A DNA stretch of 64,000 bases from an uncultured Planctomycetota bacterium (GCA_963845755.1 CAWJTV010000011.1:960001-1024000); one strand, 5' to 3'. Positions 2,929-8,998 are shown, counted from the stretch's first letter. A program made the numbers and translations. The notes: generated by a model not told the origin, from the letters alone.

Positions 2929-4029
2929 ATGAACACCCAGGACATGACCATGATCCTACAGATTGGGCTGTCCGTTATTGCCTCGCTGGCGCTGTCGCTT
3001 CAGGGGATGGTCCAGAACGGCCCTCTGATTGGAATTGACTGCAACTACACCCTGGACATGGCGAAGCGTAACAAAGCGTGGAAAGATCGGTTTGAACTCG
3101 TTGACCCATTCGAGCTGTTCGCAAAGAACGGATGCCGGAACGCGCGCATCCGCTTGTGGGTCGGTGACGATGGGATCAATCGTCTGCGATACGCCACCGA
3201 GACTGCCCGTCGTGCGAAGCAGGCCGGTCTCAAACCGTACCTTGTCGTTTTTCTGAGCGACGAGTGGGCGGACTTTGTAAAACAACCAGCGCCGGTTGTT
3301 TGGAAGAAACTAACACCAGAGAAGAAATTGGCGGCGGTGGCAACATACACGGAAAACGTCGTCATCCACATGGCCAAGAATGGGGTTGACATCGACACTT
3401 TCGAGATCGGCAACGAGATTGATTTTGGAATCTGTGGAGAGTTCGAAGAAGAATGGCCGCGGCGCGTGAGTGTCGAATTCATGCGAACGCAAGTCTGGCC
3501 GCGCATGACGCCGATCCTCAAGGCGGCGCAGGCCGGTGTGCTCAAGGTCCAGCCCAAGGCGAAATTCATCTTGCACTTGTCGCAGTGGAATAACGTCAAC
3601 TATTGCATCTCCTTCTGGCAAGCGATGATCGCCGCTGGAGTGCAACTCGACTATCCAGGGCTCAGCTACTTTCCTTCTTCGGCGAAAGAGCCTATGCAGC
3701 GTCCGTTCAGTTTTCTGCAAGCGCAGGGTGGCAAGATTGTCGAGGCACTGCACAAGCCGGTACTAATCTGCGAGACCGGATATCCAGCCGCCGCCAACTT
3801 CGGCGGGCAGTTCGCAGAGTGGAATCTGCTGGCCGAAGGGTATCCCCTGAGCGACGATGGACAAGCCAAGTGGATCGCCGATCTGGCCGCGGTCATTCGC
3901 CATGATCGAGATTTCGCCGGCGTATTCTATTGGAGCCCGGAATGGTATGACGGCGGGCTTTGGGACGCATTCGCGCTATTCGATACGCACGGCGTCGCAC
4001 GGCCGGGAGTGCGATCGTTGACTCCCTAA
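2929..4029 (+). CDS. glycoside hydrolase family 53 (arabinogalactan endo-beta-1,4-galactanase-like), secreted
   Basis: RIRLWV, SDEWAD, IGNEI (acid/base), ETGYP (nucleophile), GVFYWSPEW; N-terminal signal-like segment. Confidence 0.8.
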   Translation: MNTQDMTMILQIGLSVIASLALSLQGMVQNGPLIGIDCNYTLDMAKRNKAWKDRFELVDPFELFAKNGCRNARIRLWVGDDGINRLRYATETARRAKQAGLKPYLVVFLSDEWADFVKQPAPVVWKKLTPEKKLAAVATYTENVVIHMAKNGVDIDTFEIGNEIDFGICGEFEEEWPRRVSVEFMRTQVWPRMTPILKAAQAGVLKVQPKAKFILHLSQWNNVNYCISFWQAMIAAGVQLDYPGLSYFPSSAKEPMQRPFSFLQAQGGKIVEALHKPVLICETGYPAAANFGGQFAEWNLLAEGYPLSDDGQAKWIADLAAVIRHDRDFAGVFYWSPEWYDGGLWDAFALFDTHGVARPGVRSLTP

Positions 4030-4542
4030 CGCGCGTCGGTCTGATCGACGAATGGGTGCGCCGTGGCTAAGGTTTGTCTGGTCTTGTCGGGAGTGCCCCG
4101 ACCCCGCTGGAAGAAGGCGGGTCAAACGTTCCGCTGACCTTCAACCGAAAGGATCGAGGGGACAACAGCATGCGGAAGAAGCGACGTGAGGCCCAGCGTC
4201 AAAGGGCCGAGAGACGTTCGCAAGTTAGGCCACGCATGGGTAAGGCTGGATTGCTTGAACTCCAGTCCCAGTGGGTGTGCTCGATCACCGCCGGGAATGA
4301 CGCTGAAACCCGGATTCCTGTCTCACGGGGGCATGCCATTCACCTCCGTGATCTTCCGGCAGGACACACCCTGCAATGAGCAGGGGCAAGGGATGAACGG
4401 AGGCCCTCAACGTGGACCGGACCTGACCGACAACCACGGGATCGCCTAACGGCAGCAATGCCCAAGGCGACAGAGTCCCCGTAGTAGGCATCGGCCCAAG
4501 GGGGACAGGACACAGGGCTTCACCAAGAACGGGGTGACTCGG

Positions 4543-5045
4543 ATGAGTCATTCAGCCCTACTCAGGCTTGAAGCACTGCGGAAGTGCAACACGGACCTCA
4601 ACTGGGTCAACGCGGATCTGTATCGACTCCTCTACAAGACGGATCTCTACATCGTCGCGTATGAGAAAATCAAATCCGCTCCCGGGAACTTGACTCCTGG
4701 CACCGACGGGATGACTCTCGATGGGTTCTCCATGGATGCCATCGACGACATCGTGGCGACCCTGCGAGACGAGGGTTTCCAATTCAAGCCTTCGCGGCGG
4801 GAATACATTCCCAAGGCAAATGGCAAGATGCGGCCTCTCGGCATCTCATCCCCAAGGGACAAGATCGTCCAAGAGGTCATCCATGTGATCCTCGAAGCGA
4901 TCTACGACAGTCCGAAAGGGCCTACCTTTAGCGACTGTAGCCATGGTTTTCGGCCTGGTCGAGGGACTCACACGGCCCTGCATGAGTTCAGGACCAAGTG
5001 GTCTGGTGTGACGTGGATCATCGAAGGGGATATAAAATCCTGCTT
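4543..5045 (+). CDS. ltrA: intron-encoded RT/maturase, 5' part (RT0 to the start of RT3), interrupted
   Basis: AYEKIKSAPGNLTPGTDG, RREYIPKANGKMRPLGISSPRDKIVQE, SHGFRPGRGTHTAL, WIIEGDIKSC then a break. Confidence 0.9.
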
Positions 5046-5068
5046 GGATCGGGCATCTTGATACCCTC

Positions 5069-7114
5069 CTAAAAACGTAAGTTGTTGAGATCTCCTGCCC
5101 GCAGTTGCCGGAACCGGGCCAGGGTCTCGGGAGTGTCGGGAAACAGGTAAGTCCTTCTCTCGAAATTGATGTCAATTTGAATTGTTCCATTGTGGATTCG
5201 ATCATAGATCCAGTGTCGTGGGATATTCAGCTTCATGGCCACCTGTGGGACTGTCAAGAAGCCGGGGATCTGGCGTGGGTGCGATTGATGGCGGTCGCGC
5301 ATCAGACCGTGGCTCAGGCGAAGGAGCTGAACCGTGCTGGGCAGAACGGTTCGGCCCCTGGGCGAACGGAAGCCATCTTGGGTCAACTGGCCGGCGATCT
5401 CCTCATCGGTCTTCCCTTCCCGCGCCAGCCGCAGGATCGTGTCCTCCATCTCTCGGCTGCCTGAGAGTCGGGCCAAGGCGCCCACCGTGACTGCGAGGTC
5501 GGCCTCCGACACGTCACCCCCCTTCCAGACGACGCGACAGTGGACCGTGTCCGGGACCCTCCGATCAACGACGACCTTGTCGATCAGGCATCGCAATAGC
5601 GCCTTCTTCTGCTCCTGTGAGAAGCGGTTGGCCTCCCACCATTCCGGGATCGTCCGCCCGGCGTCACTCAGCGCCTGGCGTGTCGCGCTGTCGAGTCGAG
5701 CCCAGGTCGCTGGCTGCGGCTCTTCTCGTGCCCGCGCCTCTTCGGCCTGCTTGAGTTCCCGTAAGGCGATCTCCCAACGCTTCTCGAGTTCCGCCGTCAC
5801 CAGCCGGTTGTCTGGATCGGACTTCTGGAACTGGCGTTCGGCCAGTCGCGCCTGGTAACGAAGTCGTTCCAACTCTTGCTGCCGTGCCCGATGGATCTGT
5901 TCGTGTTCCTCCGAGAGAGACCCCAGGACGCGCTCGTAGATGTCGAGCTCCGCAGGCGCCAAGGCGGCGAAGAAGACTTGCACGACATGGTCGTCGATCG
6001 GGTCCGCGGGGAGGTACTGGCAAACCGGGACCTGATGTTGTTGGCGCAAATAATTGCAGATATAGTGAGTTTTCGGTTTGTACTGCACGACCATCTGGTG
6101 GCCGCACTCGCCGCAGTAGACAATGCCGTGCAACAAGGCTTTTCCCGGCCGGGGAACGCCTCGGGTCCGATTGCGATCATACTCGCTGTAATTGTCGCGG
6201 ATCATGGCCTGGATTTTCTCATAAGTGGCCCAGTCGATGTAGGCCGGATACTTGTCCGGAATGCGGATTCGCCACCCGGCCATCGGCTGGAGTTTCTGCA
6301 CGGCCGGCTGGTTGGGACCGGTTCGGACCGAGCGGGTGCGCCCGTAGACAAATGCGCCCGCGTAGGCGGGATTCTTCAGGGTCGAGCCCAGACCGGCGAC
6401 CGAGGGCCTCTTCCAGGCGACGTCGCCGAAGGAGTCGCGTCGAGGAATGAGCAAGTTTCGCTCTTTGAAGTACCGGACGACTTTGGCAATGGACCGCAGG
6501 CGGAGGAACGTGGCGAAGACCAGATCGATGCGTCCCTGGACCTCGCGATCCGGATGCTTGGTGACGCGTCCCAGCGGATCACGGATGAGGCCGGTCGGCA
6601 GAGTCAGTGCCAGTTCCCCGCGTTGGGCCTTCTTGAGCACGCCATCGATCAGCCGACCCCGGAGGGTATGGAGCTCCAGCTCGGAGATCTGGCCTTTGAG
6701 CCCGAGCAGAAGGCGACCGTTGGGAGTGGAGGGATCGTAGATCCCATCGCGGTCGCCGATGAGGCAATGACGGTAGCCGCAAAGATCGAGCAGTTGATAC
6801 CACTCGGTGCAGTTTCGTGACAGACGGGTGACATCGTAGGAGAAGATGATGCCGACCTGGCCGAGTGTGACCCGAGTGATGAGTTCCTTCAACCCCTCGC
6901 GTCCCACGACGGTGCTGCCGGTCTTTCCCAGGTCGGCATCGATGATCTCGACGTCCTGGGGATCCCAGCCGCACTCACAGGCGCGTTGCCTGAGATCGTA
7001 CTGGAGCCGTTGGCTCTCCAGATTGTTCAGGACCTGATGAGGGCTGGACTGTCGGATGTAGATCAGGGCCTGGCGGCCCCGGTGGAAAGCCGTTACGAGT
7101 TCTGAGATATTCAT
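5069..7114 (-). CDS. large serine recombinase (resolvase + recombinase + zinc-ribbon + coiled coil), 681 aa, intact
   Basis: YIRQSS catalytic motif, DVTRLSRN, LKNPAYAG, LLHGIVYCGECG...YIC...C zinc ribbon. Confidence 0.93.
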   Translation of the reverse strand: MNISELVTAFHRGRQALIYIRQSSPHQVLNNLESQRLQYDLRQRACECGWDPQDVEIIDADLGKTGSTVVGREGLKELITRVTLGQVGIIFSYDVTRLSRNCTEWYQLLDLCGYRHCLIGDRDGIYDPSTPNGRLLLGLKGQISELELHTLRGRLIDGVLKKAQRGELALTLPTGLIRDPLGRVTKHPDREVQGRIDLVFATFLRLRSIAKVVRYFKERNLLIPRRDSFGDVAWKRPSVAGLGSTLKNPAYAGAFVYGRTRSVRTGPNQPAVQKLQPMAGWRIRIPDKYPAYIDWATYEKIQAMIRDNYSEYDRNRTRGVPRPGKALLHGIVYCGECGHQMVVQYKPKTHYICNYLRQQHQVPVCQYLPADPIDDHVVQVFFAALAPAELDIYERVLGSLSEEHEQIHRARQQELERLRYQARLAERQFQKSDPDNRLVTAELEKRWEIALRELKQAEEARAREEPQPATWARLDSATRQALSDAGRTIPEWWEANRFSQEQKKALLRCLIDKVVVDRRVPDTVHCRVVWKGGDVSEADLAVTVGALARLSGSREMEDTILRLAREGKTDEEIAGQLTQDGFRSPRGRTVLPSTVQLLRLSHGLMRDRHQSHPRQIPGFLTVPQVAMKLNIPRHWIYDRIHNGTIQIDINFERRTYLFPDTPETLARFRQLRAGDLNNLRF

Positions 7115-7162
7115 GAATAACCTCCGCGCAGATCGCTGAGATGTCGTCGATGGCTTGCTGTT

Positions 7163-7438
7163 TCACGGTCTTGGGGAGCTTCGACCAGACGTCTTGGGGC
7201 AGGGACACGGCGTTTCATCCTCCTGGATCAGGGAAAGGAGCTCACGGATGGCGTCCGGAGTCCATTTTGTCCCGGGAAGGGTGATCTGGCTTACCATCGC
7301 GCTGGTCGAGGCGACGGGGATGCGGAGCTGCATCCCGTCGCGATAGGCGACGAGTACATGGCCGGAGCCGTGGGGTGGTCGGGAGATCGAGACGACGGCA
7401 AAACGCCGGCGGAAGAGGGGGTGAGTCGGATCCGTCAC
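7163..7438 (-). CDS. small protein at the head of the recombinase element (DUF5372/Y4bD-like)
   Basis: VTDPTHPLFRRRF...LRIPVAST motif typical of ORFs upstream of this recombinase class; the frame stays open to the element end at 7500. Confidence 0.65.
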   Translation of the reverse strand: MTDPTHPLFRRRFAVVSISRPPHGSGHVLVAYRDGMQLRIPVASTSAMVSQITLPGTKWTPDAIRELLSLIQEDETPCPCPKTSGRSSPRP

Positions 7439-7500
7439 CTCAATCTCTTCGGGAAGGGATTGAGGCGGGTTGTGGAACGGGGCATCATGAAAGGGTCTCG

Positions 7501-8838
7501 TTCGACGAGATCGATCACCACGTCCTGGTTTCCCTGATCCGGAAGAGGATCTCGGACGAACGCTTCATCGGCCTGATCTGGAAAGCACTCCGGGCAGGCT
7601 ACCTATGGAGGAAGGAACCGGGGGCCTCGTTTATCGGGACCCCGCAGGGGAGCGTGGCCAGCCCTATCCTCGCCAACATCTACCTGCACGAACTCGACCT
7701 CTTCGTCGAGGGACTACAGCAGAAGTACGAGAAGGGCAGCAAGCGGAAGGACAGCCCCGAGTATCACCGGATCAACTATCGCAGGCAGCGAGCGTTGAAA
7801 CGGTCAGGTGGGATCATGACGCCGGAGATTCGCGCTTTGACGAAACAGATGCGATCTCTCCCGTCGATGGACACGTTTGACCCTGGCTTCGTCAGAGTCA
7901 AATACATCAGATATGCAGACGATTGGATCGTCGGCGTCACGGGGCCGAGGTCCCTGGCCGAACAGATCAAGGACGAGATTCAGGCGTTCCTATGGGACAG
8001 GCTGAAACTGCAACTCAGCCAGGAAAAGACGGTCGTCACTCACGCCAAGACCGAGGAGGCCTTCTTTCTCGGGACGCGGCTTCAGGTGGGGGCCGTCAAC
8101 CCACAGCCCAAGGTTACCCACTGCCACAACCAACGGCGGCACTACCGGCGCCGGTGTACGGGGTGGAGCCCGCTGATGCGAGCGCCGATCAGGAAACTGG
8201 TCAAGCGTCTTCACCAGAAGGGCTTCTGTGACGGTGAGGGCATCGCCCGATCCAAGACAGCGTGGGTCTGCCTGGAGGTGAAGCACATCATCGAACTGTT
8301 CAACAGCACCAATTGGGGGCTGTTGAACTACTACAGGTTTGCTGACAACTTCGCCTCCATGAGCCGTATCCAGTACATCCTGCATTTGTCACTTGCGAAG
8401 ACCTTAGCCCACAAGTTGCAGAAGCCCGTTAAGCAGCTCCTCTGCGAACACGGACGCACTCTGCAATTCAACTGGAAAGACGGCGAGGGGAAGGAACGGA
8501 ACACCTTCTTCAAAGCCAACTCCGACTGGACCCGGAACCCCACGGCATTTCTAACGGGAAGAGATCAAACCGACCCACTGGAGATGCACGTCCGATTCCG
8601 GACAAGGTCCCGCCTGGACCACCCATGCATCATCTGCGAAACAACGGTCGGGGTGCAGATGCACCACGTCCGTCACATCCGAAAGATGGAGGGCAAACCT
8701 GTCGGTGGGTTTGCCTGGCTGATGCGACTCCAGAACCGGAAGCAAGTGCCCGTCTGCCGAGAGTGCCACCGTAAGATCCACCGAGGAGAATATGATGGCC
8801 TCCGACTGGCGGACCTGGCATACCGGGTTGGACCGTGA
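7501..8838 (+). CDS. ltrA: intron-encoded RT/maturase/HNH endonuclease, 3' part
   Basis: FDEIDH, GTPQGSVASPILANIYLHELD, YIRYADDW, domain X (GLLNYY), HNH (CIIC...MHHVRH...VCRECHRKIH). Joined with the 5' part gives 612 aa. Confidence 0.92.
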   Translation, partial: FDEIDHHVLVSLIRKRISDERFIGLIWKALRAGYLWRKEPGASFIGTPQGSVASPILANIYLHELDLFVEGLQQKYEKGSKRKDSPEYHRINYRRQRALKRSGGIMTPEIRALTKQMRSLPSMDTFDPGFVRVKYIRYADDWIVGVTGPRSLAEQIKDEIQAFLWDRLKLQLSQEKTVVTHAKTEEAFFLGTRLQVGAVNPQPKVTHCHNQRRHYRRRCTGWSPLMRAPIRKLVKRLHQKGFCDGEGIARSKTAWVCLEVKHIIELFNSTNWGLLNYYRFADNFASMSRIQYILHLSLAKTLAHKLQKPVKQLLCEHGRTLQFNWKDGEGKERNTFFKANSDWTRNPTAFLTGRDQTDPLEMHVRFRTRSRLDHPCIICETTVGVQMHHVRHIRKMEGKPVGGFAWLMRLQNRKQVPVCRECHRKIHRGEYDGLRLADLAYRVGP

Positions 8839-8998
8839 CACAAATGTAGATCCTGTGTCTGGAGAGCCGGATGCACGAAAACGTGCCTGTCCGGTTCGGG
8901 AGGGGGCGGTTGGATTCCCTTGAGATCAAGGGGCTGGCCGCCTACCTCATCATTAGCTTAGTCGAAAACCCTGGTCATTTAATGAGTTACGCCAAAAG

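Follow-up and report, generated by a model that had tools for sequence, protein, structure and literature searches.

Introduction

Large serine integrases of the phage type, with their directionality factors, are familiar from phiC31, Bxb1 and SPbeta (SprA/SprB). A large serine recombinase (LSR) is also encoded by a small element in a stretch of 64,000 nucleotides from an uncultured Planctomycetota bacterium (GCA_963845755.1, CAWJTV010000011.1:960001-1024000; this whole stretch is referred to as the window), where it divides the reverse transcriptase (RT) gene of a group II intron. The element is very probably a small, autonomous, LSR-moved hyperparasite that targets the motif D-[IL]-x-x-x-F/D of group II intron RTs and inactivates them (a slash marks the point of insertion here and below). 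It carries a second gene, orfX, which appears to be cut by the attachment (att) site of the element's circular form, attP.

Several other described systems share features with this element. In mycobacteriophages with integration-dependent immunity, attP lies inside the repressor gene and integration removes the 3' end of the repressor. In Tn4451, the joint of the circular form creates the promoter of tnpX. Mobile elements that strike other mobile elements include twintrons, the res-site hunters of the Tn5053 type, and insertion sequences (IS) within IS. The clostridial serine transposases TnpX (Tn4451) and TndX (Tn5397) form a multi-targeting clade marked by DUF4368 (Durrant et al., bioRxiv 10.1101/2021.11.05.467528). 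In cyanobacteria, genes are interrupted by elements that encode an XisF-like serine recombinase of their own, and transposase genes are among those hit (Hilton et al. 2016, PMC4874684). The terms "reverse transcriptase" and "intron" do not occur in the main text of either paper.

The split reverse transcriptase gene

The preliminary description of this DNA held that an RT gene is split with only a TT core duplicated, and a direct reading of both junctions bears this out. The insert is 2457 bp long (5046..7502) and lies on the minus strand, antisense to RT; its ends are defined by the junctions together with intact paralogous target sites, and the boundaries could equally be placed at 5044-7500, since TT is present at both ends. 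The left junction reads ...TCC TGC TT/GGATCGGG, where TT (5044-5045) forms the first two bases of the split codon, and the right junction reads ...GGGTCTCG TT/C GAC GAG, where TT (7501-7502) is preceded by TCTCG. The interrupted codon is that for Phe in D-I-K-S-C-F/D. On one side lies the N-terminal half of RT (4534..5045, plus strand), an open reading frame (ORF) that matches positions 1-81 of the Pfam profile RVT_1 and ends ...G-D-I-K-S-C-(F). On the other lies the C-terminal half (7503..8838, plus strand), which starts (F)-D-E-I-D-H and contains the remaining part of RVT_1, the X domain (Intron_maturas2) and an HNH domain.

When the flanks are joined computationally, they give a single open frame of 615 aa from GTG 4534, or of 612 aa from ATG 4543, in keeping with the claim that excision would restore a 612-aa RT-X-HNH protein. 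Four uninterrupted copies of the intron in the same assembly (contigs C7, C34, with two copies, and C42) encode exactly this joined protein, with 100% identity, and their DNA is continuous through the insertion site. Because the restored RT equals that of intact paralogues whose DNA spans the site, the insertion is exact and not a chance resemblance. Over the intron parts, the window copy and the intact copies share 99.5-99.9% identity.

The assembly is rich in repeats and other recombinase paralogues in it give split matches, so the arrangement might be thought an assembly artefact, or the integrase a remnant of a larger prophage or island. The likelihood of this is practically negligible: the intact paralogues fix both boundaries to the base, contigs of independent sequencing runs hold parts and ends of the element, and an element of 2455-2468 bp recurs in 15 of 20 loci from unrelated genomes (see below).

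The interrupted intron extends from 4056 to 8950 (plus strand), an extent shared with the other copies and with both ends read. The range 4543..8838 originally given covers its ORF part; the intron as a whole is larger, 4895 bp with the insert and 2438 bp without it. It begins GTGCG and ends ...CAT, and is bordered by conserved homing-site flanks at 4030-4055 and 8951-8959. Domains V-VI are intact at 8862..8950 (plus strand; RF00029, 62 bits, E 8.9e-11, gathering score 40). With this signature, and an RT-maturase-HNH ORF in domain IV, the sequence qualifies as a group II intron, although an intact RT copy scores 252 bits on TIGR04416, under the cut-off of 300. The insert therefore sits, as first described, antisense within the domain IV ORF and leaves the ribozyme domains untouched. 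The upstream host gene encodes a glycosyl hydrolase of family 53 (GH53; 2929..4029, plus strand). Its stop codon precedes the intron start by 26 nt, so that the host coding sequence is not interrupted.

One of the five full-length intron copies with an intact site in this genome is occupied by the element. A sixth copy, on contig C36 (L084, G000:C36:43000-51000, at about 3510-6021), is broken at another RT position, near residue 479, by an IS21-type element of about 2.5 kb that encodes IstA (rve and Mu-transposase C domains) and IstB and has a junction overlap of about 7 bp, an ordinary IS insertion.

The recombinase and its element

The LSR gene (5069..7114, minus strand) encodes 681 aa and has its own GGAGG, 7 nt ahead of the ATG. 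Its product shows the Pfam domains Resolvase (PF00239, E 2.3e-19), Recombinase (PF07508, E 2.5e-15) and Zn_ribbon_recom (PF13408, E 6.1e-08), and R21, Q22 and S23 are invariant in all 12 aligned family members. A catalytic domain with the Arg...Ser signature, a Recombinase domain followed by a zinc ribbon and exchange at a 2-bp core identify it as a large serine recombinase. The last ~200 aa have no Pfam or NCBIfam match. No sigma-70-like site was found in a promoter scan of 4900-7700.

The three-domain architecture, the asymmetric 2-bp core that sets orientation, the short att sites and the conservative, precise exchange are all shared with phage serine integrases. Unlike the phage enzymes, the LSR has some 200 extra C-terminal residues and travels in an element of only 2.46 kb without phage or island cargo; what it targets is a coding motif that another mobile element conserves across many diverged genes, and the gene of its putative partner appears to be cut by attP. 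Like TnpX and TndX, it would act as a transposase by way of a circular intermediate, with several targets per genome that share a dinucleotide core. It differs from them in its far more specific target and in the absence of DUF4368, the hallmark of the TndX/TnpX-like clade, from a Pfam scan (E<=0.01) that returned the three recombinase domains alone. As an insertion sequence in the ISfinder sense, the element is small and multicopy and contains LSR and orfX only. It has neither terminal inverted repeats nor a target-site duplication of the DDE type; its ends are att half-sites with a short common GG(G)YATCA motif.

A second copy, 2457 bp long and 100% identical, is present at a different locus (C26:91219-93675), a sign that the element has moved recently. 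The sequence around its TT resembles the RT site loosely, which suggests an off-target insertion. A relative on contig C6 (74% identical) splits a different RT at G-Y-F/D-A-I-P-H, again at TT and again antisense; TT is found at both junctions in the window, C26 and C6. A more distant relative on C9 (47% identical) lies among IS66 transposase genes. The same genome also holds a second multicopy family of LSR paralogues, 35-43% identical to the window LSR (G000 contigs C13, C19, C20, C21, C22, C40 and C48), many of which give split tblastn matches that reflect frameshifts or assembly indels.

Targets of related elements

More than 7000 database proteins match the LSR at E<=1e-20. The best 120 matches are 533-690 aa long (117 of them 680-682 aa), share 63-95% identity and mostly come from contigs of 2-5 kb. 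A scan of genome contigs, with one genome per species, gave 550 tblastn-confirmed loci, and the best 80 of these, together with four from the window genome, make up the 84 loci surveyed. Since these loci are phylogenetically related, the counts below are not counts of independent events. The 80 loci span Planctomycetota, Cyanobacteria, Actinomycetota, Acidobacteriota, Chloroflexota, Spirochaetota, Bacteroidota, Gemmatimonadota, Nitrospirota and several classes of Pseudomonadota, including a Wolbachia. Flanks were assigned by Pfam scans of all flanking frames and by a local RT profile that was seeded with the window RT and iterated on the flanks, and so was built from the same loci it scores. 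The longest open frame beside the element was also tried as a target label but was dropped, being too noisy in GC-rich DNA.

RT genes are the target at 42 of the 84 loci, and 40 of these 42 adjoin the same RT column. Both RT halves border the element at RT-profile columns 118-127 in 23 loci, and a single half does so in 17, where the other side is mostly off the contig; the remaining two (L002, L041) were recognised as RT by Pfam or by reading. The suggestion that the element is a hyperparasite of conserved RT codons, made when only the window was at hand, gains strong support from this tabulation and from the C6 relative with its G-Y-F/D site. All 21 flanking C-terminal halves begin at RVT_1 position 76-79, with a group II maturase domain in 18 and HNH in seven. 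Rfam group II ribozyme domains lie on the RT strand at 16 of 20 loci and represent six subfamilies (D1D4-1, -2, -3, -4, -6 and -7). The window RT has another maturase type (Intron_maturas2), so the same codon is struck in intron lineages that differ considerably. Yet another RT, with the residues F-D-Q-I-S-H, adjoins the window element's end (the loose end at 7502) in contigs of two soil runs.

A further target is IS66 tnpB. In ten loci TnpB (PF05717) ends against the element at position 87-95 of its 101-position profile, in three an IS66 transposase is next door, and in two tnpB was recognised by eye alone. Five loci lie in or beside IstB, rve, ISL3 or IS91 transposase genes and seven in or beside other genes, among them a split NTP_transf_6 gene and a kinase catalytic loop. 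Flanks have no Pfam family in ten loci and are too short for judgement in five. Some of these alternative sites fall within conserved motifs (L037, L066, L007, L039): examples are the kinase catalytic loop H-R-D-L-K-P-S-N, the NTP_transf_6 gene, which is split cleanly, an IstB split at profile position 60/62, and an rve transposase split past its core domain.

In a tree of 63 full-length LSRs, an alphaproteobacterial clade inserted in IS66 tnpB stands apart from the RT clade, and the "other" targets occur singly, scattered next to RT-targeting sisters, as off-target events would be. The tree shows that target preference is inherited by recombinase clade.

This behaviour resembles that of twintrons, Tn5053-type transposons and IS within IS in being hyperparasitism of a multicopy, horizontally mobile and host-neutral target. 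It differs in that the enzyme is a serine recombinase, and in that a retroelement polymerase is struck at a codon of its catalytic motif, which is conserved across phyla at the protein level.

A Wolbachia genome has eight identical 2442-bp copies at AT-rich non-RT sites (L092, L095, L099, L103, L106, L109, L112, L115); one left flank occurs with three different right flanks, and vice versa, which suggests rearrangement by recombination between copies. L093 and L088, and likewise L002 and L010, have the element and one RT flank in common while the other flank differs, suggesting exchange between element copies in different introns. L002 and L003 carry an extra insertion of ~2 kb in the C-terminal half of RT, ~100 bp from the element, in opposite orientation in two contigs of one metagenome-assembled genome. 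In L077, a contig of 4750 bp, the two element flanks are reverse complements of each other, probably through an assembly fold-back.

Attachment sites and crossover core

When the two junctions of each of 20 loci are aligned, TC-N-AA is common to them; several loci show a difference at the base ahead of AA, and every locus does so at the bases behind it. These mismatches on both sides place the crossover dinucleotide at AA as read on the LSR strand, or TT as read in the Phe codon. Scoring of candidate junction pairs with the RT profile gave the length of the element but not the exact base, because the inner arm of the element mimics the target; the junction alignment was used instead. Beside the core, that arm has the sequence TCG-TT-CGAT, which mimics the F-D codons (target TTCGA). 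In the restored attB sites, invariance is limited to codon positions 1-2 of D, D, F, D, I and H. The element measures 2455-2468 bp in 15 of the 20 loci, with a maximum of 2980 bp. In some relatives (L086, at 352-1001, L051 and L022) an extra 0.5-0.65 kb separates the LSR stop from the att arm, and the elements reach 2980-3101 bp.

The insert is antisense to RT at 39 of the 40 profile-defined RT loci, and the asymmetry of the core fixes this usual orientation. For the IS66 clade, hand readings of the core dinucleotide (AG, CG, AA) conflict between loci.

A recombinase with no target preference, inserting widely and surviving only in dispensable DNA such as mobile elements, would account for the many loci that lie in genes of other mobile elements (IstB, rve, IS66) or in unidentified DNA and for the varied AT-rich sites of the eight identical Wolbachia copies. 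Survivorship cannot, however, put 40 independent insertions at one RT column with one core dinucleotide; targets follow recombinase clades, and the att arm beside the core mimics the target TTCGA. Absence of preference is extremely improbable.

Regulated excision and retrohoming as alternatives

Besides hyperparasitism, the preliminary description proposed an excision-gated switch of retromobility. The host or the intron would use regulated excision to toggle RT, and hence retromobility or splicing, on the model of the skin and SPbeta elements of Bacillus or the nifD and fdxN elements of heterocysts. Exchange by serine recombinases is conservative, so excision would restore the RT gene exactly, as the joined ORF illustrates, and the nearest named NCBIfam family to the LSR, XisF (NF041201), is a developmental excisase. 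The score of the LSR (92.2 bits, E 3.4e-26) is far under the cut-off of 375, however, and makes it a non-member. Four intact copies of the same intron coexist in the genome, so gating one of them controls nothing, and no host regulator is visible within the 2457 bp. The LSR family moreover strikes unrelated intron classes in many phyla, with a sister clade in IS66 tnpB. The existence of an identical copy at a non-RT site, and of another genome in which three of four intron copies are occupied, argues against a host switch, which is very improbable.

XisF-type elements (PMC4874684) likewise interrupt a gene and carry their recombinase gene at one end, in many cases antisense; they are removed with restoration of the gene, and have identical recombinase copies at several loci. 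Unlike the window element, they are mostly larger, reside in host genes and are read as cases of developmental excision.

A further possibility is that intact copies provide RT in trans and the composite intron, once transcribed and spliced, retrohomes with its help, which would give a DNA element an RNA-mediated, replicative route. The location of the insert in the domain IV ORF, the intact ribozyme domains and the coexistence of intact RT donors in the genome are compatible with such riding. So is the genome G005 (L118-L121), in which three of the four copies of one intron family are occupied, at three loci with different 5' exon flanks, and one is intact; independent site-specific insertion predicts the same picture, though, and the composite and intact copies there are 97.8-99.7% identical without private shared changes. 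In the window genome just one of the five site-intact, full-length copies is occupied, and an intron of 4.9 kb with a broken maturase may splice poorly. Such riding is improbable, but less so than the switch. A comparison of L002 with L003 is uninformative on this point, as homology between the two contigs extends to their ends and the difference is a segment of ~2 kb that is inverted. In G005, several LSR copies are clustered within 33 kb of one contig.

A gene apparently divided by the attachment site

The element was at first taken for a minimal serine-recombinase element. The 681-aa LSR is indeed present, but the element is not recombinase-only, as a second conserved ORF occupies 7166..7498 on the minus strand. 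This is the body of orfX, a frame of 111 codons that lies upstream of the LSR gene, with its stop at 7163-7165, and is open to the element edge. In an alignment of 25 OrfX sequences, 11 columns are invariant. The frame is open to the edge in 20 of 20 loci, while its length ahead of the block E-V-T-D-P-x-H-P-L varies by whole codons, and 13 of the 20 lack any ATG, GTG or TTG before that block.

At the opposite end of the element, either 12-14 nt past the LSR stop or overlapping it, lies a Shine-Dalgarno sequence of the GGAG type with an ATG that is invariant and separated from the core by 8 nt. In the window, this P arm of the att site (5046..5068, minus strand) contains GGAGG at 5064-5068 and ATG at 5054-5056, followed by 8 nt to the core, and is proposed to hold the first four codons of orfX, which would be usable in the circle alone. 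With the ends joined as a circle, the ATG is in frame with orfX at all 20 of 20 loci, as established by script for 19 and by hand for L034, and the same geometry of the joint ORF was checked by hand for L053 and L073 of the IS66 clade. The ATG at the joint has an information content of 2.0 bits, compared with 0.2-0.7 bits at the mirror positions of the other arm; its invariance where the mirror positions vary points to a constraint beyond recombinase binding.

Joints of this kind also occur outside the integrated loci. Two metagenome contigs, detected by means of a degenerate joint motif of 40 nt, have the order LSR 3' end, joint, orfX, LSR 5' end. One of them is 3228 bp long with a terminal overlap of 127 bp, corresponding to a circle of 3.1 kb, and has an intact joint orfX of 131 aa. 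Circles, or tandem copies, therefore exist among relatives. The circle joint was not seen in the soil-run contigs that hold the window element, contigs being prone to drop rare forms. A 2457-bp skip in contigs of four soil runs was considered as a sign of excision and rejected, since it is confounded by the intact paralogues.

The window OrfX has no Pfam or NCBIfam match. It may be related to the DUF5372 family (PF17342): the window protein gives no match to it at E<=0.001, and its relative P0131 scores 24.2 bits on this family against a gathering score of 25; four orfX relatives carry a precomputed PF17342 label. A structure model (mean pLDDT 75) shows a small SH3-like barrel with two helices, and a structure search with it gave weak matches to SH3-like, KOW or Tudor barrels (E >= 0.01), from which no function was assigned.

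At 7115-7165 of the window, and in the same region of relatives, orfX and LSR are in one reading frame with a single stop codon between them. Many lineages have the stop one codon ahead of the LSR ATG; in the window the distance is 16 codons, and the residues encoded past the stop are similar to the longer tail that OrfX has in other lineages. On this pattern, an ancestral orfX-LSR fusion, or read-through of the stop codon, is possible.

The joint of Tn4451 is comparable as a device for circle-only expression, with the difference that the joint of the window element would complete a coding sequence (ribosome-binding site, ATG and four codons) and not a promoter. As in mycobacteriophage immunity, attP would lie within a gene whose product differs between the integrated and excised states. 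In the window element, unlike the phages, integration would cost the recombinase partner gene its 5' end, with ribosome-binding site and start. Gene-interrupting XisF-like elements, multi-targeting serine transposases, circle-specific expression and attP within a gene are all already known. What appears to be new, judged from the sequences compared here, is a gene that would depend on the attP joint for its ribosome-binding site and ATG. A full-text literature search, with most subscription journals outside its reach, gave no link of serine recombinases to RT, intron or IS66 tnpB targets and no mention of DUF5372.

Predicted complex of OrfX and the recombinase

Directionality factors act at the zinc-ribbon and coiled-coil region of serine integrases. 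A predicted complex of LSR and OrfX reaches an ipSAE of 0.61, compared with 0.00 for the best control; this mark is attained by 116 of 157 solved complexes and by two of 215 mismatched pairs. Contacts agree between runs to at least 63%, and the pLDDT of the partner is at least 61. On the OrfX side, the predicted contacts involve residues 24-29 and 74-94, among them H-P-L, which is invariant, and T-K-L-T, which is (nearly) so. The LSR residues touched belong to the zinc ribbon (333-339, 356-362) and to the beginning of the coiled coil (384-400), with a further set at 472-535. The model supports binding of OrfX to LSR and, as with phage integrases, would place the small partner near the zinc ribbon and coiled coil.

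Proposed mechanism

The attachment site of the element has very probably evolved to recognise the DNA that encodes a conserved RT motif, a target that is harmless to the host, multicopy and horizontally mobile. Strand exchange at the TT core in the Phe codon inserts the element and inactivates RT, and departure of the element as a circle would restore the RT gene. The integrated element would have the ribosome-binding site, ATG and first four codons of orfX at one end and the remainder at the other, so that the excised circle alone would encode full-length OrfX. OrfX could then bind LSR and bias it towards re-integration into an RT site, or stop the reverse reaction, and integration would split orfX again; each state would express what leaving that state requires. 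That OrfX is an accessory subunit specific to the circle state, acting in one of these two ways, is a tentative proposal that may well be wrong.

A still more speculative picture, and an unlikely one in its entirety, is that of a two-state machine. With attP in codons 4-5 of orfX, OrfX would be made from the circle alone and flip LSR to integration; integrated copies could only leave and circles could only land, with no regulatory circuit of the kind found in phages. LSR would read the RT active-site motif through degenerate codons, which would allow the element to parasitise retroelements of many classes and phyla and perhaps to be copied by retrohoming.

Several observations weigh against the proposals made here. 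As to the target, only half of the 84 loci are in RT genes; 15 are in or beside IS66 tnpB, five in other transposases and 17 in other or unidentified DNA, with five unassessable, and the 80 taken from the genome scan are the best of 550 tblastn hits and not a random sample. The flanks of the C26 copy have no Pfam family, so that this off-target site is without a recognisable gene. L041 (read by hand) and L061 are RT loci with the element in sense orientation; in L041 one junction dinucleotide is TA and the other TT, which may have been left by an event in the wrong orientation. Signs of activity in the window organism are limited to the two identical copies.

As to orfX, conservation at the joint is partly forced by recombinase binding and is therefore no independent evidence for coding. 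GTG 7438, the sole internal start candidate in the window orfX, could give an OrfX of 91 aa from the integrated copy; some internal start exists in seven of 20 loci, and database gene callers used internal starts or starts in the flank. Circle-only expression of orfX is therefore not strict. The complex model is a prediction, computed from alignments made for this analysis. The direction of the OrfX effect is the weakest step of the mechanism and is purely inferred; if OrfX were a classical excision factor, the split gene would make little sense.

Significance

The elements appear to form a widespread and apparently undescribed class that would be a natural enemy of group II introns, inactivating the RT/maturase of individual copies. 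The dynamics of intron copy number in bacteria should be affected by them, and the sister lineage should do likewise for IS66 elements. They suggest that a serine integrase can hold a site that is conserved at the protein level only, which bears on how such enzymes read DNA and how they may be retargeted. The att-spanning orfX suggests a simple and testable solution to the directionality of serine recombinases, and is a candidate for its minimal logic. Hundreds of genes annotated as "recombinase family protein" beside split RT or tnpB fragments may now be read as parts of one element.

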